In this document: positions 7,901-63,916 of the stretch, piece by piece
Layout of the letters: each line of letters opens with the position of its first letter
Numbering within the stretch: position 1 is the stretch's first letter
Source of the DNA: Gammaproteobacteria bacterium
GTDB lineage: Bacteria; Pseudomonadota; Gammaproteobacteria; Ga0077536
Length of the DNA: 64,000 nucleotides
Assembly: GCA_965223085.1 (NCBI GenBank)
Contig: OZ244981.1
Coordinates: 577,161 to 641,160 of the forward strand
Direction of reading: 5' to 3'
The notes under the pieces: generated by a model
The model's input: the letters and a program-made list of their open reading frames with translations, nothing else
Databases searched by the model: none
Told to the model about the DNA's origin: nothing
Position numbers and translations under genes: made by a program

Positions 7901-7917
7901 AACGGCAGTAACAGGAG

Positions 7918-11395: not shown

Positions 11396-11406
11396 GAGAA
11401 CGCCAC

Positions 11407-14034: not shown

Positions 14035-14048
14035 GGTGTATTCTCCTT

Positions 14049-39800: not shown

Positions 39801-39816
39801 CACTCTCGCGAGTAGT

Positions 39817-40059
39817 CTAAGCAATGCCGGTAACGGATCCCGCAAGCCAACTGCCGGTTGGTCGCCCCACCAGTGCACCATTGGTATGGCACTGACCACA
39901 GCCCAGCAAGGTAGTCAGGTACTCGCCGCGCGCGCCATCGCTGGCCGTTGCGTCTGCACCGATGCGATTGTTGTTTCCGGCGCACGCTGTCAGTACAACT
40001 GCAGCGATGAGCGTGGTCACCATTGCCACAAGTTGGTGTCGCATTTTACTGGTTTGCAT
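39817..40059 (-). pseudogene. lipoprotein-type c-type cytochrome, N-terminal fragment truncated by the IS3 remnant
   Basis: [28 protein letters not shown].. (lipobox) ..[18 protein letters not shown] (CxxCH). The ORF ends at the IS3 fragment boundary. Confidence 0.45.
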
Positions 40060-46869: not shown

Positions 46870-47551
46870 TTCTCAAGACGCAAACGCCTGCGAACGAAAA
46901 TACCGATAATTCTTCGCCGAAATAAGGTGACGGCCAAGATTGAATAAATTATGTACCGCTGCGTGAACCGTCAAGAAACGCTGGCACTGCTTTGCCGATT
47001 TGAATCGATGCATCACCCGCTCTCTAACTCGTGTCGACTGATGCGATAGTTCGGCGCGATTATTGGCGTATTACGATGTGTCGTGGGTCGTCTGTGGCAT
47101 TAGTTCCCGATGAGCGACGCCATAGCTTTTCAACTTGTCCGTTACGATCGTTTTCGGCTCCTGCCGATGCGTTTTCAATAAACGCTTGAAAAATCGTTTG
47201 GCTGTCTTGGCGTCTCGTCGACGCTGAATAAACACGTCGATGAACTCGCTATCCTGATCGACAGCTCGCCACAAATAATGTTGCACACCACCGATCTTAA
47301 CGAACACTTCGTCCAGGTAAAAAGTATCGCCGTAGCCTCGGTGATTGCGTTTCAATCGTCACGCATACCCCGACCCAAATTTAATGCACCATAACCGGAT
47401 CGATTCATAGCTCACGACAATGCCTCGTTCTGCGAGTATATCTTCAACGTCTCGATGACTGAGATTGAACCGAAAGTAGGTCCACACCGCATATTGAATT
47501 ATTTCTGCCGGAAAACTGCGCCGTGTGTACAGCGGTCTAGGATGTACTCAT
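46870..47551 (-). pseudogene. IS6-family (IS6100-like) transposase with in-frame TAG, TGA and TAA codons and one frameshift
   Basis: MSTS*TAVHTAQ / (frameshift) FPAEIIQYAVWTYFRFNLSHRDVEDILAERGIVVSYESIRLWCIKFGSGYA*RLKRNHRGYGDTFYLDEVFVKIGGVQHYLWRAVDQDSEF...TIVTDKLKSYGVAHRELMPQTTHDTS*YANNRAELSHQSTRVRERVMHRFKSAKQCQRFLTVHAAVHNLFNLGRH.. Confidence 0.7.
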
Positions 47552-48016
47552 CGAATCATTACCGTTCAACGCTACTTAAGTTGCCAATACCAACTCGACT
47601 ACGCGATCATCGTGCTCGAAGGCCCGGCTGCGCTGGCGGCTATCGATGAGAACGGCGAAGAGACCTTTCGGTTCGAAACCGTGAGGTTGGTCCGCACGAA
47701 TCTATCATTGAAGACGGCGAGGTCGTGTCGCCCTCAATTGGTTTGGGTGCACCCGCTGCGCAGGCAGCAAACAATGGCGGCGATGCGTTCCGCCACGAAA
47801 TCTTAATTGAGTATAAGAAGCACGTTTAAGCGCCATGAATCCCACCTCAAGCCTGCGCCAATCTATTGTGGTCAATCTCGATGGGGGTTTCCCAACGCCA
47901 AATCAGATTACGGGATAAGCCACCATATGGCGCAACATTGCCCGAGTGCGCCTTATCGTTAAATCTACTCAGCCCCTAAACAACCCGGCTGGCCTGAGGG
48001 GCACAACCGGACCAGG

Positions 48017-49189
48017 TTGATTTTTGTGTTCAAAGCGACCGACGGTCGACCCTTAGCGACCACACTGACAGGATCTCTCCCACGACCCAGCTGGTTTATC
48101 GAGAATCTACGCGGCCGCCCATTCTCTCTGGCCATGGCTGATCTCCATTTTCGTGAACAGTACTGCGACACGCTGGCGACACACTTCTGTGACCAGTCGA
48201 TGGCAGGGCTTGAGATCCTCGTCGATGGCGACTCGCGTTTCGACGCCGATGTAGGTGGCCGCGCTTGGTTCGCTTACATGTTTGAACGCATGGGTGGCTT
48301 GGAAAAGCCGGCCTTGCAAGTGCCAGGATGGTCGTCTCCTCGCGAACAACAGCGCGGCGATATTTTGCAGCGCGTCGGAGAATGTCGAGTGCCAGCTTCC
48401 GTGACCGGTGAGATCACGCCCGGCGATCTCGAATACACCGAGCTGTGGAAGACTGCTCAGAGTATGACTTCAAAACCAGTAAAACTGGGTAGCTGCTGCG
48501 CGCAACTGCTAGACACAGTTGTCGTAAATCAATATTACAAACAGCAACAGGAAGTCACAAATGCCATAGCGGATTCTATGAACTCCGAATACCACCGACT
48601 TGCCGATGCCGGCGCACCAGTGATTCAACTAGAAGAGCCACTGATACAATATGTCGCGCCGCTGGATGGTGGTAAGAAACAAGCAGAGAAATACGTAGAG
48701 GTTTTTAATCGTGAAGTCGATGGCTTGCGGGACAAAACCGAGGTTTGGGCACATACATGTTGGGGCAACCCACTGGCCCAGCGCGTTGAAGTCGTACCGG
48801 ACTACAACCCGGGTTTAGCGTATTTAAATGCCCTGGATGTTGACGTCATTACATTCGAGACGGCTAGCGACGGGGGAGAAAACCTGGAGGCGATTGCCGA
48901 CGCGATTAGTAAAGATAAAAAGATCGCAATCGGCGCGATCCATCATCGGAGCCTCGAGATCGAACGACCCGATCAAGTCGCCGAAATCGTCCGTCGCGCG
49001 GCGAAACTGATTGGGCCTGAGCGGTTGATCATAAGCTCTGACTGCGGATTCGGTCGTCAAGGCATGAGTCGCATGCACGCGTTTTTCAAAATGGTGTCGC
49101 TGCGATTGGGAGTCAATATTGTTCGCAAAGAATTCGGATTGGACGAAATACCCAGCCTCGCGGCCGATCCCAGATACGCCTTAATTTAG
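48017..49189 (+). CDS. MetE-like Zn-dependent methyltransferase, paralog 3 (about 90% identical to paralog 2)
   Basis: MIFVFKATDGRPLATTLTGSLPRPSWF..IQLEEPLIQ..WAHTCWGNP..SSDCGFGRQG. Lies immediately upstream of the Mo-hydroxylase cluster. Confidence 0.8.
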   Translation: MIFVFKATDGRPLATTLTGSLPRPSWFIENLRGRPFSLAMADLHFREQYCDTLATHFCDQSMAGLEILVDGDSRFDADVGGRAWFAYMFERMGGLEKPALQVPGWSSPREQQRGDILQRVGECRVPASVTGEITPGDLEYTELWKTAQSMTSKPVKLGSCCAQLLDTVVVNQYYKQQQEVTNAIADSMNSEYHRLADAGAPVIQLEEPLIQYVAPLDGGKKQAEKYVEVFNREVDGLRDKTEVWAHTCWGNPLAQRVEVVPDYNPGLAYLNALDVDVITFETASDGGENLEAIADAISKDKKIAIGAIHHRSLEIERPDQVAEIVRRAAKLIGPERLIISSDCGFGRQGMSRMHAFFKMVSLRLGVNIVRKEFGLDEIPSLAADPRYALI

Positions 49190-49319
49190 GGTCCCACGGT
49201 TGTGAACTTTATAACGGACGCAAGGAATCCACTTTGTAGAAATGACGCCGTCAGCAGCAGATTAAGCCTTGCCCTCGGTTTTTAGATTTACCACAGCACA
49301 ACGACACCGAACGTTACCG

Positions 49320-50117
49320 ATGAGTATCAGCTACCATTTTCCCACCGATAGTGCTGCCGCCTGGGCATTGATCAGCGACCCCAAAGCGAAGGTTATCGTG
49401 ATTGGCGGCGGCACTGTGACAACCCCAACGCTCTTCCAAGGTGCGTCGACACACACCGATATTGCCGATTTATCGCGCGCCGGATTGCATACCGCTAGCG
49501 ACGATGACGGCCGTATTCGGGTTGGGGCGATGATCCGAATAGTCGACTTCGAACGGATCACAGCGCTGCGCGCATTGCGCACAGCGGCCCGATCTGTGGG
49601 ATCGCCGGCCTTGCGCAACCTCGCCACTATCGGCGGTAATGTCGCCTATCGCGGTGATCTGGCCGTCGCCATGCTGGCACTGAAAAGCGATGTCGACATT
49701 CGCGATCGATCGGGACAGCGTACCGTGTCGTTGGAAGACTTCTATCGCGGTGATGTCAGTGTTCCGTACCTCATCACTGGGCTCACCATCCCTAAGCCGT
49801 TACCGTTGCGGCTTGGTTATTACAAATTCGCTCGACGTGCCCACAACACATCTGCGATCGTCACAGCAACAGTTGTGTGGCGTGATGATGCCGTCCGCAT
49901 CGCGATCGGCGGTGCGACCCCTAGCCCGTTCCTGGTTGAGTTAGACGCTACCGAAGTGGGCCAGGATCCCACACCCGAGACTTGTCGTGACATACTCGAA
50001 CGCAGTGGTACACCGATCGAACCGATCACCGACGCACAGGCGTCAGCGTGGTATCGCGCGCGGGTTATTCCGATCGCGCTAGCACGAGCTATTGGCGCCG
50101 CGCAGGCGCCACGATAA
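49320..50117 (+). CDS. xanthine-dehydrogenase/CO-dehydrogenase-family FAD-binding medium subunit (CoxM-like)
   Basis: MSISYHFPTDSAAAWALISDPKAKVIVIGGGTVTTPTLF..ATIGGNVAYRGDL.. FAD_binding_5-type motifs. An upstream alternative start at 49269 is possible. Confidence 0.8.
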   Translation: MSISYHFPTDSAAAWALISDPKAKVIVIGGGTVTTPTLFQGASTHTDIADLSRAGLHTASDDDGRIRVGAMIRIVDFERITALRALRTAARSVGSPALRNLATIGGNVAYRGDLAVAMLALKSDVDIRDRSGQRTVSLEDFYRGDVSVPYLITGLTIPKPLPLRLGYYKFARRAHNTSAIVTATVVWRDDAVRIAIGGATPSPFLVELDATEVGQDPTPETCRDILERSGTPIEPITDAQASAWYRARVIPIALARAIGAAQAPR

Positions 50118-50232
50118 CACGCAAATCTTTGTTGCGAGACGCTGGCAACGTAATAGCCCTAGGAGAAATCGTTAGTGACGTACAGTCGGAAAGGGTTCAA
50201 CAGCAGTTCATACTGCACCCGGGGACGATAAG

Positions 50233-50715
50233 GTGGTGGATACTGCAATCTCGATCGAGATAAATGGCCGCGATGAAACCGTCTTGGTAAATGCCACGAC
50301 ATCATTACACGCACTATTGCACGAGCGCCTCGATTTGCACAGCGTCCGATCGGGTTGTAGCGTGGGCACTTGCGGAAGTTGTGCAGTGTTACTCGACGGC
50401 GAACTCGTATTGTCCTGTCTCGTACCGGCGCTACGCGTCGAGGGCCACCGCATCGAAACGCTCGAAGGACTTTCACACGCAAACGAAATAGAGTCGATAC
50501 AAGCAGCCTTCATCGAATGCGGAGCAACACAATGTGGGTATTGCACGGCGGGAATGATTATCGCCGCGAAACAACTACTCGACGACAATCCCGCGCCGAC
50601 GCGTGAGGCGATTCTCGAAGCGATATCCGGTAACGTCTGCCGCTGCACTGGTTACGAACCCATTGTTGCGGCGATCGCGCTAGCCGCACATGGTCAAACC
50701 GATCTGGAGAAGTAA
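50233..50715 (+). CDS. (2Fe-2S)-binding small subunit (CoxS-like) of the molybdenum hydroxylase
   Basis: ..RSGCSVGTCGSCAVLLDG.. (plant-type 2Fe-2S Cys4) and ..CGATQCGYCTAGMI..CRCTGYEPI.. (second cluster). Confidence 0.85.
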   Translation: MVDTAISIEINGRDETVLVNATTSLHALLHERLDLHSVRSGCSVGTCGSCAVLLDGELVLSCLVPALRVEGHRIETLEGLSHANEIESIQAAFIECGATQCGYCTAGMIIAAKQLLDDNPAPTREAILEAISGNVCRCTGYEPIVAAIALAAHGQTDLEK

Positions 50716-50717
50716 GC

Positions 50718-52073
50718 ATGTACGACTTGAAAACAGTGACTTTTCCGGAGCAACACGATGACTCCTTAAGCGTCGTCGGGAAATCAATACCAAGACGCGG
50801 CGCGCCCGCTAACGTTCGGGGTGAGGTTAAATTCGTGGATGATGTCGCCTATCGCGGCATGCTACATCTAAAAATGGTGAGAAGCCCAATTCATCATGGA
50901 CTCATTAAATCCATCGATGATTCTGCGGCGGCTGAGGTCGACGGTTTTATCCGTACCCTGACTCATCATGATGTACCTAATAATTATTTTACGCCATTGC
51001 AGATCATCGGTGTCAGCCCCAATGACGAACCGGTATTAGCCACCGATAAGGTACGGCATCGAGGCCAATCCGTCATCGCCGTACTCGGTGAAACGCCGCA
51101 GGCAGCAGCGGCGGCGGCAGCTCGCGTAAGGGTCGAGTACGAGGAATTGCCGGCCGTGTTCGATGTCGAGCAAGCACTCGAACCAACGGCGCCCATCGTC
51201 GCCACGCACGGGAAGAATTATTGGGAGTACGAAGGTCACCCTTGTCGCCGTGTCCGTTTCGGCGATGTTGCGGCCGGTTTCGAACAGGCCGATGTGATCG
51301 TCGAGGATCGCTACGATACCTCACCTATCGAGCAAGCGCCGCTGGAAACAACCGCTTGCGTTGCCGTGCCCGGATCGGACGGCCGCGTTACGGTTCATAC
51401 CAACACACAAGCACTGTTTTTTACCCTAGCGAATACGTCCATCATCAGCGATATTGCGCCACATCGCCTGCGATTCCTCGGCGGTGTGGTCGGTGGTGGA
51501 TTTGGTGGCAAGTCTGATGCGATAACGGAGCCGCTCGCGGTTGTCGCCGCAAACCTCACCGGCCGTCCGGTGAAATTCAAGTATTCGCGCGAAGAAGAAA
51601 TGCAAGTGTCGTCTACCCGAGCCGCTTGGCGTTTCTATATCCGTGACGGGGTCAAACGTGATGGCCGAATCGTTGCGCGCGAGATCACCGCTTACGCAAA
51701 CTGTGGCGCATATACCCGCCTAGTGAACTACGGCGTCACGAAATGTGCAGCCCACCTGCCAGGACCCTATACCATCCCCAACGTATCGATCGATGCTTAT
51801 TGCGTCTATACGAATCGCCAACCCGGTAGTGCCATGCGCGGATTCGGTTGCACAATGGGTGACTTCGCGATCGAAATGCAAATGGACAAGATCGCCACGG
51901 AGTTAAATTTGGATCCATGGCGTGTTCGCATGGTCAACGCGTACCGCGACGGAGATATGAAGGCCCACCGCAAGGAGGTAGAAGGCGCTGCCCTAATTGA
52001 AGTTTTGCAGCAAGCAGCGCAGCAGGTCGGTCACGAACTTAGCGCTGACCTGGCAAGCATGCGCTCGTTCTAA
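50718..52073 (+). CDS. molybdopterin-binding large subunit (CoxL-like), N-terminal part (split gene)
   Basis: a/b-hammerhead (..GKSIPRRGAPANVRGEVKFVDDVAYRGMLHLKMVRSPIHHGLIKSID..) and the first Mo-binding domain (..GGGFGGKSD.., ..GCGAYT..). Ends at a TAA 16 nt before the next ORF. Confidence 0.75.
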   Translation: MYDLKTVTFPEQHDDSLSVVGKSIPRRGAPANVRGEVKFVDDVAYRGMLHLKMVRSPIHHGLIKSIDDSAAAEVDGFIRTLTHHDVPNNYFTPLQIIGVSPNDEPVLATDKVRHRGQSVIAVLGETPQAAAAAAARVRVEYEELPAVFDVEQALEPTAPIVATHGKNYWEYEGHPCRRVRFGDVAAGFEQADVIVEDRYDTSPIEQAPLETTACVAVPGSDGRVTVHTNTQALFFTLANTSIISDIAPHRLRFLGGVVGGGFGGKSDAITEPLAVVAANLTGRPVKFKYSREEEMQVSSTRAAWRFYIRDGVKRDGRIVAREITAYANCGAYTRLVNYGVTKCAAHLPGPYTIPNVSIDAYCVYTNRQPGSAMRGFGCTMGDFAIEMQMDKIATELNLDPWRVRMVNAYRDGDMKAHRKEVEGAALIEVLQQAAQQVGHELSADLASMRSF

Positions 52074-52088
52074 ATCGGAGAGATCCAC

Positions 52089-53093
52089 ATGGCGATTCGT
52101 GAAGGGCGGGGCATCGCCGCCGTCAATTATCCAACCGGGATGAATCTCGGCGGGGATCCATCGCAGGCGCTGATCCATGCTACGCCGACCGGCGAATTCC
52201 ACGTCGTCTTGGCATCGGTCGACCTAGGACAAGGCCTGCGCACCGTGATCGCGCAGATTGCCGCCGAAGCGCTCGGGGTTCCCATCGACGTCATCAACGT
52301 CCAAACCGGCGATACAGACACGGGGCCGCACTGCACGGGAACATTCGCGAGTCGTGGTACGCATCGTATCGGCAACGCAGTTGCGGCCGCGGCGGCAGAA
52401 GCCAGAAACGTTATGCTCGAGGTTGCCGCGAACGAACTTGAAGTCGATCCGGGCGATCTCGAAACGGACGGCGACGGCAATATTCATATCAAGGGTCACC
52501 CGGAACGCTCGATATCCGTTTGTGACACGGCCTTGGCCGCACATTTCGCAGTCGGTCGAACGATATCCGGTCGCGGCATCTACCTCAAGGAACCGAGTAC
52601 GCCAGATCCTGAGACAGGCGCGATGGACCCAGACTCGGGACACGCCCACGCGTGTGTTGTCGCCGACGTGCAAGTTGACACTGATACCGGTGAGGTGCGG
52701 GTCGTCGCGGTCCACAATGCTTTCGAGGTTGGCCGAGCCGTTAATCCGACCTTGGTGGAGCAACAGATCTTTGGCGGCGCGTGGATGGGAATGAGTCACG
52801 CGTTGTACGAAACAACGGCACCGTATTACCCTGAGCCTGATCACGCACCGGTCGATTTCGGCGACTACCTCATGCCGCATGGCGCAGAATTGCCGGAGGT
52901 CAGCAGCGTTGTCATCGAACGACCGAACGCTAGCGGGCCCTACGGCGTTAAAGGCGTCGGAGAGATGACCGCAAATCCGATTATTCCAGCCATCGCCAAC
53001 GCCGTGGCGGATGCGGTTGGTGTGCGTATAACGAGCCTTCCAATTACGCCCGAGAAGGTGCTACGGGCATTGGACGGCCTTAAGCGCACGTAA
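52089..53093 (+). CDS. molybdopterin-binding large subunit, C-terminal part (split gene)
   Basis: ..AHACVVADVQVDTDTGEVRVVAVHNAFEVGRAVNPTLVEQQIFGGAWMGMSHALYE..GPYGVKGVGEMTANPIIPAIANAV is the C-terminal domain of XDH-family large subunits. Own ATG with a GGAGAG RBS. 451+334 aa sums to a normal CoxL length. Confidence 0.75.
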   Translation: MAIREGRGIAAVNYPTGMNLGGDPSQALIHATPTGEFHVVLASVDLGQGLRTVIAQIAAEALGVPIDVINVQTGDTDTGPHCTGTFASRGTHRIGNAVAAAAAEARNVMLEVAANELEVDPGDLETDGDGNIHIKGHPERSISVCDTALAAHFAVGRTISGRGIYLKEPSTPDPETGAMDPDSGHAHACVVADVQVDTDTGEVRVVAVHNAFEVGRAVNPTLVEQQIFGGAWMGMSHALYETTAPYYPEPDHAPVDFGDYLMPHGAELPEVSSVVIERPNASGPYGVKGVGEMTANPIIPAIANAVADAVGVRITSLPITPEKVLRALDGLKRT

Positions 53094-53980
53094 TGGATAC
53101 CGTGTCCCAATCGATTCCGCAAACTGTATCGGATGTGGACGACAGCTTGCGTGCGACGGGGTATATCAGCGACGAGGGAATCGCGGCTGCCGTGTTTTTG
53201 GCGCTTCGTCTACAACGCCCGCTTCTACTCGAGGGATTTCCAGGTTGTGGCAAGACCGATTGTGCGAAGGCGCTGGGCGAAGTCCTCAAAACTGAGCTCA
53301 TCCGGCTGCAATGCTACGACGGATTAGGCGCTAAAGAGGCACTATACGATTGGGATTATTCGCGGCAGTTGCTTCATCTACGCGCAGTGCAGAACGAAGA
53401 GCAATCGCGTGGATTGGATCAAGAACTGTACAGTGAGCGATTTTTGCTAGCCCGTCCGTTGCTGCGCGCACTACAGGAGGCGCGCGCCCCGGTCGTCCTC
53501 ATCGACGAAATCGATCGCGCGGATGCAGATTTCGAGGCCTTTCTACTCGAGTTTCTCGATGAGTTCCAGGTAACGATTCCTGAAATCGGCAGTGTGACAG
53601 CGAGTGCCCGACCCCACGTTGTGTTGACGTCCAATCGTACTCGCGAATTGCACGACGCACTCAAGCGTCGTTGTATTTATCATTGGATCGACTTACCAAC
53701 ACCCGAGCGCGAGTTGGAGATCATCCGCTCACGTTGCCCAGATATATCGAAGCAACTAGCACACCGCATCAGTATCGCATTGCAACGTATTCGCGCGCTC
53801 GATTTAGCCAAAAAACCAGGGGTCGCCGAGGCCATCGACTGGGCGCGGGCTTTAATGCAATGGCAAGCTGCACAATCGCAAGGTGAGGACTGGGCACCAA
53901 CTCTTGGCGCATTGCTCAAGAACCGGCGCGATCTCGAGATCGCCCGCGAACAAAACGAGGAGATTTTCGCAGAAAATTGA
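53093..53980 (+). CDS. MoxR-type AAA+ ATPase (CoxD-like Mo-enzyme maturation factor)
   Basis: ..LLLEGFPGCGKTDCAKAL.. (Walker A), ..VVLIDEIDRA.. (Walker B). The start overlaps the coxL-C stop (TAATG). Confidence 0.8.
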   Translation: MDTVSQSIPQTVSDVDDSLRATGYISDEGIAAAVFLALRLQRPLLLEGFPGCGKTDCAKALGEVLKTELIRLQCYDGLGAKEALYDWDYSRQLLHLRAVQNEEQSRGLDQELYSERFLLARPLLRALQEARAPVVLIDEIDRADADFEAFLLEFLDEFQVTIPEIGSVTASARPHVVLTSNRTRELHDALKRRCIYHWIDLPTPERELEIIRSRCPDISKQLAHRISIALQRIRALDLAKKPGVAEAIDWARALMQWQAAQSQGEDWAPTLGALLKNRRDLEIAREQNEEIFAEN

Positions 53981-55140
53981 TCTCAGCTGCGGCGACTGTT
54001 CCTATTGTTCCGTCTTTGGTGGGATTCGCCTGTGCCTTGAGAGACGCGGGATTCATGATATCCCCAGAACAAACTAGGCGTTTCCTCCAAGCGGTGACCG
54101 AAATCCGCCTCGAACGCAAGGCGGAATTGTACTGGGCAGCGCGTGTGTGTTTGTTAAGCGACGCTACTCGTATCGCGACTTTTGACGCGGCGTTCCATGA
54201 TTATTTCAACACTACGCCGGGCGCCTTGCTTGGCGCTGAAATCGCGGATTCTGTCGCGACCAACGATCAATTAGGGCGACAGCTCGTGCACACCGGAATA
54301 GGTGATAACTCGTGTGATGTCGAGGGCGAAACTCGGGGCGGCGAAAACATGGGACGCGGCGCGTCCGGCGTCGAAAGACTTAGGACGCGTTACCTCGAGC
54401 CACCTAGCGCGGCAGAACGTGCGGTGCTAGACGAATTGGAACGCCGGCTGCATCACACAATATCACCCCGTGCCAGTCGTCGTTTCATGCGCGGCGACAG
54501 CGGCGACGAACTGGATTGGCACGCGACTATCGGTCGCATGCCGCGTACCTATGGTGAAATCAGTCGCCTCGAATGGAAGCAACGCCGAAAACAATACGCC
54601 ATACCGATCGTACTCATTGATATATCGGGCTCGATGTCCGCGCAGATCCGCCCGGCCATGATGCTCGCCTACGCCTTGACGCAGGCCTTTAAACGAACGC
54701 GCTGCTTTACCTTGGGCACCCGTTTGACCGATCTCGGCGATGCCCTGCATTCGCGTGACGCGGCGCAGTCATTCTGTCAGCTTAGCGAACGGGTCGACGA
54801 TTGGCAGGGTGGTACCCGCCTAGGCCCGACACTGCTGGAATTTGTGCAGGACTTCGAACGCGAGGCCCTGGTACGGGGCGCTCGAGTGCTGATAATTTCC
54901 GATGGATTGGAACGTGGCGATCCGAGTGCGCTTTATCTTGCGGTTCATCGGATCAAACTGTTGGCGTCACAGCTCACTTGGTGTTCGCCGCTGGCGCGCC
55001 GGTCCAACTACGAACCACGCACGCGAGCTATGCGGGAATTACGCCCAACACTCGGGCAGATCTTCCCCGGTTCTCAGCTATGGGAGTTAGGTGATTCTGT
55101 GCTTCGGGCTTGGTGTCGACCGGGTAGTGTAGTGAGGTAG
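53977..55140 (+). CDS. VWA-domain protein (CoxE-like)
   Basis: ..PIVLIDISGSMS.. (MIDAS DxSxS) in a roughly 387-aa protein after a MoxR ATPase. Putative TTG start overlapping the coxD stop; a downstream ATG at roughly 54053 is an alternative. Confidence 0.7.
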   Translation: MISAAATVPIVPSLVGFACALRDAGFMISPEQTRRFLQAVTEIRLERKAELYWAARVCLLSDATRIATFDAAFHDYFNTTPGALLGAEIADSVATNDQLGRQLVHTGIGDNSCDVEGETRGGENMGRGASGVERLRTRYLEPPSAAERAVLDELERRLHHTISPRASRRFMRGDSGDELDWHATIGRMPRTYGEISRLEWKQRRKQYAIPIVLIDISGSMSAQIRPAMMLAYALTQAFKRTRCFTLGTRLTDLGDALHSRDAAQSFCQLSERVDDWQGGTRLGPTLLEFVQDFEREALVRGARVLIISDGLERGDPSALYLAVHRIKLLASQLTWCSPLARRSNYEPRTRAMRELRPTLGQIFPGSQLWELGDSVLRAWCRPGSVVR

Positions 55141-55260
55141 GCTAGGGATTGTTAGACTGTCGGATAAGTCAGTAGAGCACGTAACATTTTCACCGCAGTT
55201 TAATTCGCACACTGTACGGTGAGGGAAAGTTCTCGCTCAACACCAGCGCCGGAAACCCGC

Positions 55261-56586
55261 ATGAAAACAGTGATTAAAAGCGCAAGCATCGTATCTATGG
55301 ACGAGGGTATCGGTGATCTCGCCTCCGGGGATATTTTGATCGAGGGGGAGCGCATCGCCGAAATCGGTGCGGATCTGGGCGTCATCGCCGCCGATGTCGT
55401 GATCGATGGTACGGACATGATCGCGATGCCCGGATTCGTCAACGGACATCTCCACTTGTGGCAGACCGCACTTCGTGGCATCGCTGGGGACTGGAGCCTA
55501 GGCCGGTATTTTCATACCTTGATCGAGGATGCGGTGCCGAATTACCGGCCGACCGATGTCATGATTGGCGATTTAGCGGGCGCACTTGATCAACTGAATT
55601 CTGGGGTCACCACACTCGTGGACTGGTGTCATATCGCTAATTCTCCAGAATATGCTGACGCCGCGGTAGACGGCCTCCTTGCATCGGGAATTCGCGCGGT
55701 GTTCTGCTACGGCGCGCCGATGACAATCCTACTTAACCCAGAAGCTGATCACCCCACGGACGTGCGTCGCATGCGCAAAGAACGATTGGCTTCTCGCGAC
55801 GCGTTGGTGACGATGGGACTTGCGCTACGTGGACCCGATTTTGCGCCGGGCACGGAAGAGACCGACATCCGCCTGGCTCGCGAACTCGATGTCCCGGCTA
55901 CTTTTCATATCGCCTGCGGAAAGTTTGGCCCGCGACCAGAATCTGTGGTTGCGCTCGCGCAAGCAGAGCTACTAGGCCCCGACATCAATCTCGTGCATGC
56001 CAACTTTTTGACCGACAATGAATTTCGTGCGGCGGCGAACTGCGGCGCGTCGATTGCGATTACGCCAGAGGTCGAGATGCAGATGGGGCTTGGGCTACCA
56101 CCCACCAATCCCGCGCGCGATCATCAGGTTAGGATCACACTCGGTACAGATATCGTAACCGACGTAAGTGCCGATATGTTTTCGCAAATGCGATTCCTGC
56201 TGCAGACAGAGCGTGCCTTACGTAACGATAAGCTTTTGCAACAAGGCGAAATGCCGGAGCAAATTGAATTCACCATACGCGATGTGCTGACTATGGCAAC
56301 GATTGAAGGCGCACGCGCATTCAATTTAGCGGATGAGATAGGCTCATTGACACCGGGGAAATTTGCCGATATTACGCTGTTACGCAAGAGTGATATCAAC
56401 ATGGCCTGCGTCAGGGATCCCGTTGCCGCAATCGTGCTTCACGCCAATCCCGCGAATGTCGACACAGTACTCGTAGCAGGTGTGCTGCGAAAAAGAAATG
56501 GGCAGCTTACCCACGCTGATTACGACAAAACGATGCACGAGCTACAAACATCGTCCGATTATCTCCATGCCGCCATGGTTTCATGA
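55261..56586 (+). CDS. amidohydrolase-1 superfamily metal-dependent hydrolase (chlorohydrolase / aminohydrolase-like)
   Basis: MKTVIKSASIVSMDEGIGDLASGDILIEGERIAEIG...GFVNGHLHLWQTALRG (HxH metal site)...HIAC..HANFL.. matches the guanine-deaminase/AtzA-B-like subgroup. Confidence 0.8.
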   Translation: MKTVIKSASIVSMDEGIGDLASGDILIEGERIAEIGADLGVIAADVVIDGTDMIAMPGFVNGHLHLWQTALRGIAGDWSLGRYFHTLIEDAVPNYRPTDVMIGDLAGALDQLNSGVTTLVDWCHIANSPEYADAAVDGLLASGIRAVFCYGAPMTILLNPEADHPTDVRRMRKERLASRDALVTMGLALRGPDFAPGTEETDIRLARELDVPATFHIACGKFGPRPESVVALAQAELLGPDINLVHANFLTDNEFRAAANCGASIAITPEVEMQMGLGLPPTNPARDHQVRITLGTDIVTDVSADMFSQMRFLLQTERALRNDKLLQQGEMPEQIEFTIRDVLTMATIEGARAFNLADEIGSLTPGKFADITLLRKSDINMACVRDPVAAIVLHANPANVDTVLVAGVLRKRNGQLTHADYDKTMHELQTSSDYLHAAMVS

Positions 56587-56657
56587 TGCTCGACTCACAC
56601 CCCACGCGCCTAAACCCAACAGGCTGCTAATAGTCGCCTTCCTTACACGCTGTCCGC

Positions 56658-57557
56658 ATGCTGCCAGTCGAAATTGTTGATGCGCACCACCACATCTGGC
56701 GCCAGAGGGATTTGCCATGGTTACAAGGAAAGATGCAGCCGCGCATTTTCGGACCCTACGAACCGATCATGCGCGATTATGGCGTGGAGGAATACATCCG
56801 TGATGCCGAGGAGTCTGGTGTGGTAGCGTCGATTTACGTACAGACGAATTGGCCGACCACGCAAGCCGTTGACGAGGTCGCATGGGTGGAATCGTGCGCA
56901 GCAGCGCATGGCAAACCGACGGCGATCGTCGCTTATTGTGATCTCGTGGGGAGTGCCGTCGAAGAAACGCTGGAACGTCAAGCCCTCGCCTCGAGCCGTA
57001 TGCGCGGGATCCGCATGCAATTGCACTGGCATAAAAACCTAATGTACCGATTCGCTGAGCGGCCCGATCTGTGCTGCGACGATCGCGTTCGCCACAGTTT
57101 GGAAAAGGTCTGTAAGCGCGGTTGGCTATTTGAACTACAAGTGTTCCCAGATCAGATGAACGATGCCGCACAGCTGGTCGCGGACTTACCTGATTTAAAC
57201 TTCGTGTTGGTACACGCCGGAATGCCCGAAACCGACACCGGCTCTGCCTTCACTAAATGGCGCGCCGCGATCGAAACGCTCGCAAACCACCAAAACTGCT
57301 ACACGAAACTGTCTGGTCAGGGCACCTTCTTACATCGTGTCGATGATAGTTTTATCGGCAATGTGGTTCGCGCGTGCTTAGATGTGTTCGGTGCTGAACG
57401 TTGCATGTTCGGCTCCAATTTTCCCATCGAGAAAATTTGGTCCGATTTCAGCGGGCTCATGCGCGGTTTTGATACGGCCTTGGCGGGGCTACCGGATGAC
57501 GTTATGCGAAAGCTGTTTTTCGAAAACGCGAATCGCGTTTATAAGCTCGGCCTCTAA
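56658..57557 (+). CDS. amidohydrolase-2 (PF04909-type TIM-barrel metal-dependent hydrolase/decarboxylase/lactonase family)
   Basis: MLPVEIVDAHHHIWRQRDLPWL.. (HxH)..VLVHAGMP..FGSNFP.. 299 aa. Confidence 0.75.
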   Translation: MLPVEIVDAHHHIWRQRDLPWLQGKMQPRIFGPYEPIMRDYGVEEYIRDAEESGVVASIYVQTNWPTTQAVDEVAWVESCAAAHGKPTAIVAYCDLVGSAVEETLERQALASSRMRGIRMQLHWHKNLMYRFAERPDLCCDDRVRHSLEKVCKRGWLFELQVFPDQMNDAAQLVADLPDLNFVLVHAGMPETDTGSAFTKWRAAIETLANHQNCYTKLSGQGTFLHRVDDSFIGNVVRACLDVFGAERCMFGSNFPIEKIWSDFSGLMRGFDTALAGLPDDVMRKLFFENANRVYKLGL

Positions 57558-58426
57558 GTACTACGCCTGCCGCGGTGCGGGCAGCGTTCCGTATACTTTC
57601 CATCCGGTTTTGCGACCACTCTGTAAGCGCTGGGTGCAACCCCCGTGTGGTTGCGGAAAAAGCGTGAGAAATTCCCCGGCTCAGTAAACCCGAGTTCAAC
57701 CGCGAGGTCATTTAGCGATACATCCGACCCCAATAGTCGATCGATCGCCGCCTCCACACGTAGCGTGTTCCAGTAGAGATTGGGTGTCACTTTCATGTAT
57801 TTCCGAAACAACGCGAAAAAATGCGGTCGCGAGATTCCGGCATCACGAGCGACCTCGTTCAAATTTGGTCGATCGTTTAGATGTGACCGCATGTAAGCGA
57901 TCGCTCGCTTGAGTCGAAAATCGACGAACTCGCCGGTGGGGAAAACCGGTGTCTGTTGGACCGAACGCGCCCCGGCTTTTTCCAGAACGCCATGTAGGAA
58001 TCGGGCGACTTGCTTGTCTAAATCCAGCTGCTCGTCGGGAAGTGACAATAACTGGGCGGAGAATTCCTGATACAAGGCTCGCAAGCCGTCATCAATTTCT
58101 ATCGAGTTCGCAGTGAAATTCGGATCGAAGCCAAGCCGAAGGCATTCGTGGGCCAGCCATGGCATCTCGAGATAGAACAGCAAAAACGTGACTGGGTCAT
58201 TGCTATCAAGGCGGCTAAACTCATGCGGCTCGAAGGAATTGACTAGTGCACAATGATCCTGATCCAACGGAATGGTATTGTCGCTAACGCGCATCTTGGT
58301 CCGCGCCCCAGCAAACCAGAAGATAAGATGCCCCTGAGGATGGGCGTGCTCAACAAGCGATGAGTTGGCGCGTAACAACGCGACCCGCCCGCATTCACCC
58401 CAGTTGACTCGCAAAATCTCAGACAA
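57554..58426 (-). CDS. AraC/XylS-family transcriptional regulator, convergent with the amidohydrolase-2 gene
   Basis: N-terminal cupin-like domain plus C-terminal HTH (..LNEVARDAGISRPHFFALFRKYMKVTPNLYWNTLRVEAAIDRLL..LAVELGFTEPGNFSRFFRNHTGVAPSAYR). Confidence 0.8.
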   Translation of the reverse strand: MSEILRVNWGECGRVALLRANSSLVEHAHPQGHLIFWFAGARTKMRVSDNTIPLDQDHCALVNSFEPHEFSRLDSNDPVTFLLFYLEMPWLAHECLRLGFDPNFTANSIEIDDGLRALYQEFSAQLLSLPDEQLDLDKQVARFLHGVLEKAGARSVQQTPVFPTGEFVDFRLKRAIAYMRSHLNDRPNLNEVARDAGISRPHFFALFRKYMKVTPNLYWNTLRVEAAIDRLLGSDVSLNDLAVELGFTEPGNFSRFFRNHTGVAPSAYRVVAKPDGKYTERCPHRGRRST

Positions 58427-59829: not shown

Positions 59830-60615
59830 ATGCTTGTGGACAGTATCGACGAAGTGCCGGGACTGCCGGAACTGAACGCGTATGACCTAAGCTCCATCAA
59901 CACAGCCCCGTGCATCTCCTTTATCAAAAACTGAACAAAGACTACCGCGCCCGCTGGAAAGCGCTTACCGGCACCACCCTCTTTGAAACCGCCTACGGTG
60001 TGACCGAAACTCACACCTGCGACACCTTTAATCACGGCTTCCAGGGTAATGATTTCGACCTGTCCTTTGCACCGGCCTTTGTCGGCATGCCCGTTCCCGG
60101 TACGGAAGTAAAAATCTGCGATTTCGACACCGGCGAACTCAAGCCGCTGGATGAAGAAGGCGAAATCCTGATTCGCACCCCCACGCTGTTAAAAGGCTAC
60201 TGGAACAAGCCAGCCCGAAGCCAATGCTGAGCTGTTTGTGGGCGACGGCTGGTTTCGCACCGGCGATCCGGGCATAGTGACCAGCGAAGGTTATGTACGC
60301 TACCTCGGCCGCCGCAAGGAAATGATCAAAGTCAACGGCATGAGCGTCTTTCCCACCGAGGTGGAGTCCATGCTGGGCCAGAATCCCGCCATTGCCGCCT
60401 GCGGTGCCATCGCCCGACCCGATGAGAAAAAAGGCCAGGTACCTATTGCCTTTATCACGCTCAAACCGGGTCACAAGGAAACCGAGGAAAACCCGCGCGC
60501 ATGGAGCGAAGCCACGATGGCGGTGTACAAAGTGCCCGAGTTTCGCATTATGGACGCCCTGCCCATGACCGCGACAGGCAAGATCAAGAAAAACGAACTG
60601 GAACAACTCCTGTAG
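59830..60615 (+). pseudogene. C-terminal roughly 260 aa of an acyl-CoA synthetase (AMP-binding enzyme), 5'-truncated and frameshifted near 60230
   Basis: ..TLFETAYGVTETHTCDTF..GMPVPGTEVKICDFDTGELKPLDEEGEILIRTPTLLKGYWNKP / (frameshift) GDGWFRTGDPGIVTSEGYVRYLGRRKEMIKVNGMSVFPTEVE...ATGKIKKNEL. The N-terminal AMP-binding half is absent; IS110 debris lies upstream. Confidence 0.55.
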
Positions 60616-60628: not shown

Positions 60629-63600
60629 ATGGACTCCCTGTTTACGCGCATTTTAATCGCCAACCGCGGCGAAATCGCCATTCGTATCGCCCAGGCCGCC
60701 GACGACCTGGGCATAGAAACACTGGCCATCTACCCGGAGGATGACGCGCTCAGCCTGCACACCCAAAAGGCTACCCACGCAGTCAAACTCGAAGGTCGCG
60801 GCGTCAAAGCCTATTTGGACATAGAACAACTGATCCGTGTCGCCAAAGCACACGGCTGCGATGCGGTGCACCCCGGCTACGGGTTCCTCTCGGAAAATGC
60901 CGAGTTCTCTCGCCGCTGCGTCGAGCAAGGCATGACCTTTATCGGCGCCAGCGCCGAACTGCTGGAGCAGCTGGGCAACAAAGCCACCGCCCGGGAAATT
61001 GCCCTGCGTTCCGAGACACCGCTCACTGGCGGCATCAACAAGGCCTGCAGCCTGGAAGAGGTCCAGGCATTTTTCGAATCACTTGGCGAAGGCGCCGCGG
61101 TGATGATCAAGGCCCTGGCCGGTGGCGGCGGTCGCGGGATGCGACCGGTCACCGAGTACGACAAGCTGGCCGAGGCCTACCAGCAGTGTCAGGATGAAGC
61201 CACGATTGCCTTTGGCAGTGGTGATCTCTATGTGGAGCAACTGGTGCAGGACGCTCGCCACATTGAAGTGCAGATTTTAGGGGACGGCACAGGTGCGGTA
61301 AGTCACGCCTGGGAGCGCGAGTGTTCCCTGCAGCGCCGCAACCAGAAACTGCTGGAAATTGCCCCCAGCCCTTCCCTGTCCGATGACGAGCGTCAGCCTA
61401 TTATCGAAGCGGCACTGAAACTGGCATCCGACGTGAAGTACCAGGGATTGGGCACCTTTGAGTTTTTACTCGACGCCAAAGATCACCGCAAATTCTATTT
61501 TATGGAGATCAACCCCCGCATTCAGGTAGAGCACACCATCACCGAAGAGATCTGTGCTATCGACCTGGTCCAGGCGCAGATTCAACTGGCCGCTGGCAAG
61601 ACCTTAGAGGCGTTGGACTGGCTGGAACCCCCGGTCAAAAAAGGTTACGCCATCCAGGGCCGGGTCAATCTGGAAAAACTGGAAGTCGGCGGCAGCGTTC
61701 GCCCCGCCTCCGGCTTGCTCTCTGTCTACCAGCCCCCCACGGGCCGCGGCGTTCGGGTGGACGATTACCTATACAGTGGCTATTGCGTCAGCCCCAGTTA
61801 CGATTCCCTGGGTGCCAAGGTAATCGTCAAGGCGCACAGTTATGACTTCGCCCTGCAAAAATGCCAGCGTGCCCTGCGCGGTATGAAGATTGACGGCGTC
61901 AGTCACAATATCGGGTTGTTATTGAACCTGGTTGAGCATGAGGCGGTTAGGCGCAACCAGGTCAATATCCAATGGGTGGAAAACAACCTGCTTGAACTGA
62001 TCTGCCCCCGCAACAGTGACGACCACACCTACTTTACCTCCGATGCTACCAACAACGAAGCTACGCTAGACATCACAATCCCCGCGGGTTGCGAAGGCCT
62101 CCCATCCCCCACCGCTGGCACCCTGGTTTCCATCGACGTCAATGAAGGTGACGAAGTACATGCCGGCCAAGTGGTTGCGGTGATCGAAGCCATGAAAATG
62201 GAAATCCCAATCAAGGTGGAGCTGGACGGCACCATCGACCAGGTGCTGGTCTATGAGCTCGGTGAGATTATTAACGAGGCGCAACTGCTGCTAATCCTTC
62301 AGCCGGGTGAAGTCTCCATCGCACGGGGCAAAACCGAGGAAGAGATCGATCTGGATACCATTCGCGCCGACTTGCAGCAGTTCTTTGACCGCCGCGACAA
62401 AACCCTGGACGTCGCGCGCCCCGATGCTGTGGCCAAACGTCACGCGCAAGGCAAGCGAACGACCCGGGAAAATATCGACGACCTGCTGGATGCCGGCAGC
62501 TTTAACGAGTACGGCGCCATGGCGCTAGCCGCCCAGCGCCGTAAGCACAGTGTCGACAAGCTGATCGAAATCAGTCCTGCGGATGGCAAGGTCACCGTCA
62601 CCGGCACCGTCAATGCGGCCTTGTTTGGAGCAGATGCGGCCCGCTGTGCGGTGATGTCCTATGACTACACGGTAATGGCCGGTTCTCAGGGGATTATCAA
62701 CCACAAGAAAACCGACCGCATTCTGGGGCTTGCCAAAAAGTGGCGCATGCCACTGGTGATTTTCGCAGAGGGTGCCGGTGGGCGTCCTTCCGATACCGAC
62801 TACCCCGGTGTTGGTTTTCTTAATCTGCACACTTTTTCTGCCCTGGGCGAGCTGTCCGGACTGGTGCCTACCGTGGGCATTGTCGCCGGCAACTGCTTTG
62901 CCGGAAACGCGGCCATGTTTGGTGTGTGCGACCTGACCATTGCCACCCGACAGGCCAGTATTGGTATGGCGGGGCCCTCCATGATTGAAGGTGGCGGGCT
63001 GGGTAAGTTCAGACCGGAAGACGTTGGCCCGACCTCGGTACAAAGTCCCAATGGCGTGATCGATGTGCTGGTGGAAGATGAAGCGCAAGCGGTGGCCGTG
63101 GCCAAGCAATACCTGTCTTACTTCCAGGGCGACCTCAACACCTGGGAGACCCACGACCAGCGAAAATTACGTCATCTGATCCCGGAAAACCGAATGGCGG
63201 TATACGACATTCGCGAGGTTATCGAGACACTGTGTGATGTGAACTCCGTGCTGGAACTGCGCAAGGATTTTGCCAAAAACATGATCACCTGCCTGGTGCG
63301 CATCGAAGGTAAAGCCTACGGTTTGTTCTGCAACGATCCACGCTACCTGGGAGGCGCCATTGATGCCGTCGCCGGTGACAAACTGGCACGTTTTATCCAG
63401 CTGTGTGATGCACACGATATTCCACTGATCTCCCTGTGCGACACGCCAGGCTTTATGGTGGGGCCCGAATCGGAGAAAAACGCTACGGTGCGCCATATTT
63501 GCCGCATCTTTGTCCATGCGGCCAACGCAACAGTTCCCCTGTTTACGATCGTGTTGCGCAAAAGTTACGGCCTGGGCGCCATGGCCATGGCCGGCGGGGG

Positions 63601-63916
63601 CTTTACCGCGCCGGTACTGGCCGCCTCCTGGCCCAGTGGCGTATACGGTGCCATGGGTATCGAGGGCGCCGTACGGATCAGCGCCGCCAAACAGTTGGCA
63701 GCGATCGAAGACCCGACGGAGCGCGAAGCAACCGTCAAAACCCTGGCCGACAAGATGTATGAAGAGGGCAACGCCATCAACACCGCCAGCTACCTGGAAA
63801 TCGATGCCGTTATCGATCCACTGGAGAGCCGCGACTGGATAACCCGCGCACTGGCCGCCACCCCTAAACCTGCCAAACGCGAGGGCAAGAAGCGCCCCTG
63901 TATCGACACCTGGTAA
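60629..63916 (+). CDS. single-polypeptide biotin-dependent acyl-CoA carboxylase (biotin carboxylase + biotinyl/BCCP + carboxyltransferase domains fused)
   Basis: 1095 aa. BC domain (RILIANRGEIAIRIAQAA..; ..KALAGGGGRGMR..; ..EINPRIQVEHTITE..), biotin attachment motif EAMKMEI, and a C-terminal carboxyltransferase domain (..VMAGSQG.. and acyl-CoA CT beta-type blocks). Confidence 0.8.
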   Translation: MDSLFTRILIANRGEIAIRIAQAADDLGIETLAIYPEDDALSLHTQKATHAVKLEGRGVKAYLDIEQLIRVAKAHGCDAVHPGYGFLSENAEFSRRCVEQGMTFIGASAELLEQLGNKATAREIALRSETPLTGGINKACSLEEVQAFFESLGEGAAVMIKALAGGGGRGMRPVTEYDKLAEAYQQCQDEATIAFGSGDLYVEQLVQDARHIEVQILGDGTGAVSHAWERECSLQRRNQKLLEIAPSPSLSDDERQPIIEAALKLASDVKYQGLGTFEFLLDAKDHRKFYFMEINPRIQVEHTITEEICAIDLVQAQIQLAAGKTLEALDWLEPPVKKGYAIQGRVNLEKLEVGGSVRPASGLLSVYQPPTGRGVRVDDYLYSGYCVSPSYDSLGAKVIVKAHSYDFALQKCQRALRGMKIDGVSHNIGLLLNLVEHEAVRRNQVNIQWVENNLLELICPRNSDDHTYFTSDATNNEATLDITIPAGCEGLPSPTAGTLVSIDVNEGDEVHAGQVVAVIEAMKMEIPIKVELDGTIDQVLVYELGEIINEAQLLLILQPGEVSIARGKTEEEIDLDTIRADLQQFFDRRDKTLDVARPDAVAKRHAQGKRTTRENIDDLLDAGSFNEYGAMALAAQRRKHSVDKLIEISPADGKVTVTGTVNAALFGADAARCAVMSYDYTVMAGSQGIINHKKTDRILGLAKKWRMPLVIFAEGAGGRPSDTDYPGVGFLNLHTFSALGELSGLVPTVGIVAGNCFAGNAAMFGVCDLTIATRQASIGMAGPSMIEGGGLGKFRPEDVGPTSVQSPNGVIDVLVEDEAQAVAVAKQYLSYFQGDLNTWETHDQRKLRHLIPENRMAVYDIREVIETLCDVNSVLELRKDFAKNMITCLVRIEGKAYGLFCNDPRYLGGAIDAVAGDKLARFIQLCDAHDIPLISLCDTPGFMVGPESEKNATVRHICRIFVHAANATVPLFTIVLRKSYGLGAMAMAGGGFTAPVLAASWPSGVYGAMGIEGAVRISAAKQLAAIEDPTEREATVKTLADKMYEEGNAINTASYLEIDAVIDPLESRDWITRALAATPKPAKREGKKRPCIDTW

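Follow-up and report, generated by a model that had tools for sequence, protein, structure and literature searches.

The closest characterised logic to the gene cluster described here appears, by analogy, to be that of the lumazine/pterin pathway of Cupriavidus sp. LA-1, whose cluster I encodes a lumazine dehydrogenase, an isomerase of the Amidohydro_2 family and a pterin deaminase (Doi et al. 2025, PMC12391406). Its components also resemble the four-subunit nicotinate dehydrogenase (NDH) NdhF/S/L/M of Eubacterium barkeri (3HRD in the PDB), in which the molybdenum (Mo) subunit is split into parts of ~50 and ~37 kDa; the catalytic domain of MetE and the core MetE proteins (3RPD, MesA-D), with which a (β/α)8 fold, a zinc site of the His-x-Cys/Glu/Cys type and counterparts of the homocysteine-binding residues are shared; and the cog0402 amidohydrolases (MTA/SAH deaminase 4F0R, 8-oxoguanine deaminase, TrzN/AtzA), with which the fold and the HxH/His/His/Asp metal ligands are shared, and whose general chemistry consists in displacing a substituent of an N-heteroaromatic ring by hydrolysis. 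The cluster is located in a 64,000-nucleotide stretch (the window, positions 577,161 to 641,160 of the contig OZ244981.1, assembly GCA_965223085.1, from a Gammaproteobacteria bacterium) and encodes a stand-alone MetE-like protein, a four-subunit Mo hydroxylase, proteins of the CoxD and CoxE type and two amidohydrolases (Table 1). New here is a catabolic cluster centred on a Mo hydroxylase, in itself of a known type, which contains three uncharacterised families, atypical catalytic residues and a recurrent MetE-like partner.

The likeness to cluster I of LA-1 comprises a Mo dehydrogenase of the xanthine oxidoreductase (XOR) family that hydroxylates ring carbons next to nitrogen, an Amidohydro_2 protein that attacks a cyclic amide, an amidohydrolase-type deaminase that removes an exocyclic amino group, and the encoding of all of these, with transporters and regulators, in a single inducible cluster. 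On the other hand, of the two clusters only that of LA-1 has an unsplit Mo subunit, a two-subunit Amidohydro_2 isomerase (α/β DHLI, with a His/His/Asp Zn site), a prenylated flavin mononucleotide (prFMN) decarboxylase and a GTPase, and it lacks the MetE-like gene and CoxD/CoxE, both present in the window. Compared with LA-1 by description, the window locus has a single Amidohydro_2 protein, with Asn in place of Asp, and an Amidohydro_1 protein devoid of the deaminase Glu. The homarine hom operon (PMC13236597) was considered as another precedent and rejected, as it contains neither a Mo enzyme nor a MetE-like gene and its ring opening precedes demethylation. The literature search found no paper on MetE-like/PF01717 proteins in catabolic clusters, on a Mo hydroxylase with a homocysteine methyltransferase, or on a split NdhL/NdhM with an amidohydrolase that describes this combination, in agreement with the preliminary description of the stretch, which had not recognised it as a described pathway.

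We propose that the locus is a catabolic operon for a heteroaromatic compound, a reading to which we give an even chance. From the observed gene content, domain families, catalytic-residue patterns and conserved neighborhoods we infer the chemical steps, their order and the substrate as follows. The operon would be under AraC control, and its substrate would be a (hetero)aromatic compound bearing, on a heteroatom, a methyl or other alkyl group that can be transferred, and would be taken up via a TonB-dependent receptor of the kind present in relatives and in the decayed second copy of the locus. The Mo hydroxylase would introduce a water-derived hydroxyl group onto an electron-poor ring carbon beside the heteroatom, to give a lactam or lactone, and the Amidohydro_2 protein would hydrolyse or isomerise the resulting cyclic amide or ester. 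In the MetE-like protein a Zn-activated thiol, most likely that of homocysteine, would take the methyl group of the substrate to yield methionine, while the Amidohydro_1 protein would rely on its metal centre and an invariant Cys to remove an amino group or a like substituent from the ring by hydrolysis. The demethylate-hydroxylate-hydrolyse route suggested in the preliminary description is plausible as a hypothesis. A methylated pteridine-, purine- or pyridine-type compound is our weak guess at the substrate class; the sequences of the TonB-dependent receptor and of the AraC regulator did not narrow it.

Gene calls were made from the listing of open reading frames (ORFs) and from Pfam and NCBIfam profile scans, which bore out the positions and domains given for ten genes in the preliminary description; in the Pfam scan every domain of the Mo hydroxylase subunits exceeds its gathering score. 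The array from the MetE-like gene to the Amidohydro_2 gene (48017-57557) is encoded on one strand with intergenic gaps of 0-115 nt, in which a pattern scan revealed no convincing terminator. The Rfam gathering scan of the whole window returned zero matches, hence no S-adenosylmethionine (SAM) or cobalamin riboswitch was detected ahead of the MetE-like genes. A 29-nt block, ATCAGATTACGGGATAAGCCACCATATGG, occurs with 100% identity upstream of both subfamily A MetE-like copies (47902-47930 and 23766-23794), while the surrounding DNA is only 81% identical between the copies. An exact search finds the block at these two sites of the window and nowhere in shuffled sequences, and aligning copy 1 with copy 2 and with a metagenomic relative (locus L003) shows it to be partly conserved 5' of the ortholog in the latter. 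We regard the block as a candidate operator or promoter element.

The search of the PDB identified nicotinate dehydrogenase as the best match of both halves of the Mo subunit (N-half: 3HRD_A, nicotinate dehydrogenase L, E 2.5e-66, 228 bits; C-half: 3HRD_B, nicotinate dehydrogenase M, E 1.5e-52, 182 bits), with CO dehydrogenase (CODH), xanthine dehydrogenase (XDH), quinoline oxidoreductase and 4-hydroxybenzoyl-CoA reductase ranking below 3HRD. Both halves align end to end with their counterparts, and the L/M split is kept in the orthologs. The name CoxL, used for this subunit in the preliminary description, is misleading, because the nearest solved relative is nicotinate dehydrogenase. The window enzyme nevertheless differs from that of E. 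barkeri in being moderately similar to it, in the absence of the nicotinate-fermentation partner genes and in a Lys at the position of Arg880. According to the alignment to rat XDH, Gln767 corresponds to Q231, Arg912/Phe914 to R374/F376, Glu802 to S266 (Val in the family consensus, Leu in NDH) and Arg880 to K342, which is invariant in the family. The position of the Cu-binding Cys of CODH is occupied by G375 in the loop SAMRGFG, and the motif VAYRCSFR of form I CODH is absent from this loop; the inspection of the loop recommended in the preliminary description thus found Gly375 where a Cu-Mo CODH would carry its Cys. The GVGE motif of the C-half, which was matched by eye and not by alignment, looks like the position of the catalytic Glu1261. 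Equivalog models score far below their cut-offs (TIGR02416: 167 bits vs 991; Xdh equivalogs, e.g. 267 vs 916), and the best NCBIfam matches of the enzyme are XdhA models, all below cut-off. Judged from its sequence, the enzyme is a hydroxylase-type member of the XDH family, neither a CO dehydrogenase nor a xanthine dehydrogenase. CoxD and CoxE accompany non-CODH hydroxylases in many orthologous loci, and their presence is therefore no sign of CO oxidation; the CoxD/CoxE-type proteins would mature the Mo site.

The MetE-like protein of the operon (copy 1 of subfamily A; the database start lies three codons later, giving 387 aa) is a single domain of ~390 aa without the folate-binding N-terminal domain. 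In an alignment of 29 sequences H246-x-C248, E281 and C343, i.e. the MetE zinc ligands, are invariant, as are GS20LP, D70 and E206-E207-P208. By comparison with the MetE motifs, GS20LP, D70 and E206-E207 are presumably the equivalents of the Ser and acidic residues that bind homocysteine. The AlphaFold2 model (predicted local distance difference test, pLDDT, 86.6) best matches the core MetE structure 3RPD and the C-domain of the T. maritima MetE (template modelling score ~0.7-0.8), but the identity to MetE is only ~20-22%, and the protein differs from MetE also in being embedded in catabolic clusters. Curated methionine-synthase models score far below cut-off (best NCBIfam model: 112 bits vs 406). 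Taken together, the Zn and homocysteine-site residues, the MetE fold, the missing folate domain and the sub-cut-off scores indicate that the protein is in all probability a Zn/thiol alkyltransferase. A search with the MetE-like protein against plasmids gave no match, also at 1e-30.

The Amidohydro_1 protein confidently matches the NF006056 model (PRK08204; 531.7 bits, cut-off 391), a family annotated in NCBIfam merely as 'hypothetical protein' and for which no characterised member was found in the literature. Its metal ligands H77, H79, H230, H260 and D311 are invariant in 27 sequences. The HxxE motif of cog0402 amidohydrolases reads H230-I-A-C233, with Cys233, likewise invariant in the 27 sequences, in place of the catalytic Glu; it aligns with the Glu of HLAE in the 8-oxoguanine deaminase 7WW2. 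Structures of 8-oxoguanine deaminase are among the PDB matches of the protein, as is 2PAJ, an isoxanthopterin deaminase. The AlphaFold model is of moderate quality (pLDDT 69) and is low in the active-site loops. The Amidohydro_2 protein retains H10, H12 and H186, but the Asp of strand β8 is replaced by Asn254 (GSNFP in 35/35 orthologs); its best PDB match is the L-fucono-1,5-lactonase 4DLF (E 8.6e-11). That the two proteins deaminate or open such rings, the preliminary view of their families, does not follow from family membership, as both lack a canonical catalytic residue. A more distant Amidohydro_1 homolog (43% identity) is encoded in an aromatic cluster of the hydroxyquinol type on the plasmid pBB2 of Cupriavidus necator N-1 (locus L182, 1269-10253), together with genes for an intradiol dioxygenase, a maleylacetate reductase and a GMC oxidoreductase, which suggests that the wider family acts on substituted aromatic rings beyond N-heterocycles.

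Comparison of genomic neighborhoods revealed that two sub-modules, each conserved on its own, have been joined in the operon: sub-module A with the Mo enzyme (subunits in the order M-S-L-M), CoxDE and Amidohydro_2, and sub-module B with Amidohydro_1 and the MetE-like protein. The Mo-subunit ortholog is widespread (several thousand homologs scored; among the matches listed mostly 59-65% identical), and 80 genome loci carrying it were surveyed. CoxM-CoxS-L-M is present in nearly all of them, and Amidohydro_2 (48-55% identity) in 29, of which 27 have CoxD-CoxE as well. These 29 loci come from Alphaproteobacteria, Actinomycetota, Chloroflexota and Verrucomicrobiota; carriers of the sub-module include Mesorhizobium, Dongia, Nonomuraea, Actinomadura, Asanoa and Chthoniobacterales, as well as Labrys and a Yoonia plasmid, and EthD-like and GntR genes are often found alongside. 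In Mesorhizobium the sub-module is compact and has unrelated genes on both sides; on the Yoonia plasmid it is extended by genes for a lactonase-family protein, an isochorismatase, an SDR and an FAA hydrolase; and in most Chloroflexota loci a cyclase/formamidase-like protein replaces Amidohydro_2. On the plasmid NZ_CP026310.1 of the haloarchaeon Salinigranum rubrum (L180, 7652-12758) the split Mo enzyme has an ortholog (57% identity), accompanied by an SRPBCC protein and, likewise in place of Amidohydro_2, by a cyclase-family protein, which implies a transfer of sub-module A between bacteria and archaea.

The Amidohydro_1 family is also large (among the matches listed mostly 56-64% identical). 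Its orthologs (57-62%) are convergent to a PF01717 gene in 4/4 sampled contexts (L172, L173/174, L175/176 and L177), and in all four a Peripla_BP_6 binding protein adjoins Amidohydro_1; the PF01717 partners are 38% identical to the MetE-like A protein of the window. L175/176 further contain an XDH-family enzyme without the split, a CoA ligase, an OYE/TMADH-like flavoprotein, an FAA hydrolase, an SDR and a GST, while L177 adds an AraC regulator and the same UPF0261/PEP-hydrolase-like pair that follows the third MetE-like gene of the window. This third gene, of subfamily B (41% identical to A), is absent from the preliminary description; its product is 50-52% identical to the Amidohydro_1-partnered MetE-like proteins of L172-L176 and 52.6% to that of L067, the single Mo-ortholog locus with a MetE-like gene. 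Subfamily B is the MetE-like type that pairs with Amidohydro_1 orthologs elsewhere. The full fusion of A and B was found, apart from the window, in a single metagenomic relative (L001-L004), with identities of 74% for MetE-like, 73% and 77% for the Mo halves, 69% for Amidohydro_1 and 66% for Amidohydro_2, and with an AraC ortholog (61%) at the same position as in the window; CoxDE is absent from it. L089 (Mo subunit 65% identical) combines sub-module A with Amidohydro_1, an FAA hydrolase, a TonB-dependent receptor and a GST, and lacks a MetE-like gene. TonB-dependent receptors flank the related modules in L003/L004, L089 and L091.

Another 80 metagenome loci with homologs of MetE-like A (46-57% identity) were surveyed. 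In L115, L133, L134 and L135 (4/80) a different XDH-family enzyme (27-31%) adjoins the MetE-like gene, L133 and L134 being one lineage. Adjacency of MetE-like and XDH-family genes has arisen about five or six times independently and is a minority arrangement. The co-localisation in other genomes that the preliminary description had asked about is thus seen in L001-L004, in the four Amidohydro_1 contexts and in MetE-like genes beside unrelated XDH-family enzymes. In several loci from soil metagenomes (L128, L130, L133, L134, L142, L146, L148, L149, L157, L159 and L170) the MetE-like A homolog lies directly downstream of FdhD, with MobA and MoeA upstream in most, MobB in six and an ABC ATPase on the other side in several. 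The MobB-MoeA-MobA-FdhD adjacency was considered as a link to the molybdenum cofactor and rejected, as the ten loci compared (L142 not among them) are 85-97% identical and represent one lineage; the arrangement still adds one more neighborhood of MetE-like genes with a relation to molybdenum.

Several observations weigh against our proposal of a heteroaromatic-degrading operon. Amidohydro_1 occurs in 0/80 of the Mo-ortholog loci and a MetE-like gene is missing from 79/80, while 76/80 of the MetE-like loci have no XDH-family neighbor; the link between A and B is therefore lineage-restricted, and the one conserved module assumed in the preliminary description gives way to a fusion of two. The missing Glu in Amidohydro_1 and Asp in Amidohydro_2 mean that the reactions are not readable from the family names. 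An O-heterocycle or lactone intermediate may be formed instead of a lactam, since among characterised proteins a sugar lactonase is the one closest to Amidohydro_2. Finally, the MetE-like paralog at 8.7 kb adjoins DMGDH-like and Mer-like LLM enzymes, and the MetE-like protein of the operon could be a methionine synthase using a methyl-pterin donor rather than a substrate demethylase.

Parts of a second copy of the locus are found at 19.4-24.1 kb of the window. Its MetE-like gene is intact: the two copies are 81% identical at the DNA level over 1290 nt, ~120 nt of upstream sequence included (self-BLAST, 47898-49187 vs 23798-22509), and 87-88% identical at the protein level, so that the second gene is real but its identity falls short of the ~90% reported previously. 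The TonB-dependent receptor noted before is there, placed between the MetE-like gene and the CoxM paralog. The latter carries the frameshift described earlier and, in addition, has lost ~53 internal codons; FAD_binding_5 matches one fragment only, and the limits of the paralog had to be adjusted (Table 1). The Amidohydro_1 remnant, previously placed at 23913-24100, is genuine but comprises the leader and ~20 codons, being truncated by a fragment of a Mutator-family transposase (Transposase_mut, 23917-24489, minus strand). Since it lies on the plus strand, it points away from MetE-like copy 2 and does not follow it downstream. Of the other genes of copy 2, i.e. CoxS, the Mo subunits, CoxD/E and Amidohydro_2, nothing has survived; copy 2 was arranged in another order, and no more than three of its module genes can still be recognised. 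That the whole module existed twice, as stated earlier, can with the remaining genes missing only be conjectured.

The region between 13 and 27 kb contains pieces of Mu-like, IS21-like and Mutator transposases and a TraC fragment, and an IS240-type fragment (47071-47355) lies just 5' of copy 1. Altogether, fragments of transposases and integrases (rve, IstB, Mu-type, Mutator, IS240-type) were located at 13013-15416, 17377-18132, 23917-24489, 39428-39985 and 47071-47355, and the window has the look of a decaying mosaic island made up of catabolic genes. Searching plasmids with the DNA of the locus returned no match. At 34565-35016 (plus strand), directly after a gene for a Mo oxidoreductase of the DMSO-reductase family (32244-34511), there is a fragment of an XDH-family hammerhead domain that matches aa 32-179 of the NdhL-like subunit at 28-38% identity and is probably a pseudogene remnant.

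The third MetE-like gene belongs to a second candidate operon (1927-12231), which also encodes a QhpR-like AraC regulator, an LLM-class oxidoreductase resembling methylenetetrahydromethanopterin (methylene-H4MPT) reductase, a flavin adenine dinucleotide (FAD) and GcvT protein similar to DMGDH and sarcosine dehydrogenase, and the UPF0261/PEP-hydrolase-like pair; a UPF0261 protein has recently been demonstrated to be the aromatic phenol kinase MarK (PMC12624787). This operon could channel an N-methyl group via methylene- and methyl-pterin to methionine. Beyond the AraC gene at the other end of the window there is a gene for an AMP-binding protein (acyl-CoA ligase, 59910-60615), seemingly broken into two short ORFs, followed at 60629-63916 by a 1095-aa fusion of biotin carboxylase, biotin carboxyl carrier protein and carboxyltransferase.

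Table 1. Positions in the window of the genes and elements discussed in the text, with the supporting profile or sequence match.
Feature	Coordinates	Strand	Match or context
MetE-like stand-alone protein, subfamily A, copy 1	48017-49189	+	PF01717, 83 bits
FAD-binding subunit of the Mo hydroxylase, CoxM/XdhB-like	49269-50117	+	PF00941 + PF03450
Double [2Fe-2S] subunit, CoxS/XdhC-like	50233-50715	+	PF01799 + PF00111
Mo subunit N-half, NdhL-like, 451 aa	50718-52073	+	hammerhead PF01315 + MoCoBD_1 PF02738
Mo subunit C-half, NdhM-like, 334 aa	52089-53093	+	MoCoBD_2 PF20256
CoxD-like MoxR AAA+ ATPase	53093-53980	+	AAA/AAA_5
CoxE-like VWA protein	53977-55140	+	PF05762 VWA_CoxE, 146 bits
Amidohydro_1, PRK08204 subfamily	55219-56586 (likely start 55261)	+	NF006056
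Amidohydro_2, LigI/lactonase-like branch	56658-57557	+	PF04909, 153 bits
AraC-family regulator with cupin ligand domain, convergent	57554-58426	-	PF12833, PF00165, PF02311
Upstream region of the operon (promoter/operator)	47898-48016	+	blastn homology to copy 2 begins at 47898
MetE-like subfamily A, copy 2, intact	22507-23679	-	PF01717
TonB-dependent outer-membrane receptor	20214-22463	-	Plug + TonB_dep_Rec_b-barrel
CoxM paralog pseudogene	19382-20045	-	tblastn aa 11-149 at 69%, aa 203-278 at 59%
Amidohydro_1 paralog remnant, leader + ~20 codons	23912-24092	+	blastn 72% to 55147-55321; tblastn aa 4-34 at 68%
AraC-family regulator, QhpR-like	1927-2949	-	second candidate operon
LLM-class oxidoreductase, methylene-H4MPT reductase-like (Mer-like)	4230-5288		second candidate operon
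DMGDH/sarcosine-dehydrogenase-like FAD + GcvT protein	5453-7900		second candidate operon
Third MetE-like gene, subfamily B	8663-10027 (likely start ~8780)	+	PF01717
UPF0261 (MarK-type aromatic kinase family)	10181-11395		after MetE-like B
PEP-hydrolase-like TIM barrel	11407-12231		after UPF0261

Other explanations of the locus have to be weighed against the proposed operon. In a pterin/lumazine (or folate-breakdown) variant the Mo enzyme would be a pterin/lumazine dehydrogenase, the MetE-like protein would strip the N5-methyl group from methyl-tetrahydropterin or -folate, Amidohydro_1 would be a pterin deaminase, and Amidohydro_2 would open or isomerise the hydroxylated pyrazine ring. This variant accords with the enzyme logic of Cupriavidus cluster I (an XOR-family dehydrogenase with an Amidohydro_2 isomerase and an amidohydrolase-type deaminase), with the enzymes of the tetrahydrofolate (THF)/H4MPT type that adjoin the third MetE-like gene, and with the presence of 8-oxoguanine deaminase and the isoxanthopterin deaminase 2PAJ among the matches of Amidohydro_1; N5-methyl-pterins are also the sole known donors for the MetE catalytic domain. 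We nevertheless consider it rather improbable, since no prFMN/UbiD decarboxylase, LA1_0143-type GTPase or second Amidohydro_2 subunit was found in the locus or among the annotated ORFs of the window, the Zn ligands of DHLI are His/His/Asp as opposed to the Asn of the window Amidohydro_2, and Amidohydro_1 has no deaminase Glu. Somewhat less probable still is a nicotinate or pyridine-carboxylate dehydrogenase in an operon that degrades an N-methylpyridinium betaine, e.g. trigonelline, after its demethylation. Quaternary N-methyl groups are chemically good methyl donors, the nearest solved structure with the same L/M split is a nicotinate dehydrogenase, the basic residue at the Arg880 position is retained as Lys, and NicX-like and maleate-isomerase-family genes are found in the vicinity of some distant MetE-like genes. 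However, the enzyme resembles 3HRD only moderately (228 and 182 bits), genes for 6-hydroxynicotinate reductase/enamidase and NicC/NicX/NicD/NicF are absent from the locus, and in the known pathways for trigonelline and homarine the ring is opened before demethylation, by the products of unrelated genes.

About as improbable as the pterin variant, in our view, is that the MetE-like genes are alternative methionine synthases riding on a mobile island, with only the Mo hydroxylase and the amidohydrolases being catabolic. The intact Zn and homocysteine sites, the core MetE proteins as the closest folds, the unrelated contexts of most MetE-like homologs, the wealth of insertion sequence (IS) fragments in the window and the enzymes beside MetE-like B that could make methyl-THF would all agree with this. 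It is harder to reconcile with the MetE-like gene at the same operon position in the 74% identical relative, with its recurrence beside Amidohydro_1 orthologs and several unrelated XDH-family enzymes, with the absence of a folate-binding domain and the scores of the curated methionine-synthase models far below cut-off, and with the lack of a SAM or B12 riboswitch among the Rfam matches in the window; moreover, three paralogs in 64 kb are hard to square with housekeeping genes. The CoxD/CoxE-like genes and the XdhA models among the best NCBIfam matches might suggest an aerobic CO dehydrogenase or a xanthine dehydrogenase, but we regard either identity of the Mo enzyme as hardly credible: it is contradicted by Gly375 at the Cys position, Ser266 for Glu802 and Lys342 for Arg880, the enzyme falls far short of the cut-offs of the Xdh and CODH equivalogs, and no purine-catabolism genes are found near the locus.

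The three partner families are large, with thousands of homologs each (among the matches listed mostly 54-65% identical), and their named sources include soil alphaproteobacteria, actinomycetes, metagenome-assembled genomes of Chloroflexota and haloarchaeal plasmids; no characterised member of these three families was found in the literature. A broader proposal, which we put forward only tentatively and hold to be distinctly less probable than the catabolic operon itself, is that the MetE-like proteins A and B, of ~390-450 aa, are new cobalamin- and oxygen-independent demethylases, for which (hetero)aromatic compounds would be the donors of N-, O- or S-methyl groups and homocysteine the direct acceptor, so that the methyl groups would end up in methionine, and which would have Cys-for-Glu PRK08204 proteins as partners, and that the Mo hydroxylase with the Asn-type Amidohydro_2 is a second undescribed unit, of two enzymes for ring opening, distributed from Chloroflexota to haloarchaea. 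The operon offers a compact, regulator-linked test bed for four uncharacterised enzyme families. If the MetE-like proteins are indeed homocysteine-dependent demethylases, they would constitute a third mechanistic class beside the oxygenase and the corrinoid/THF demethylases, and the breakdown of methylated heteroaromatic compounds (alkaloids, modified nucleobases, pterins, pesticides) would be tied directly to the supply of methionine.

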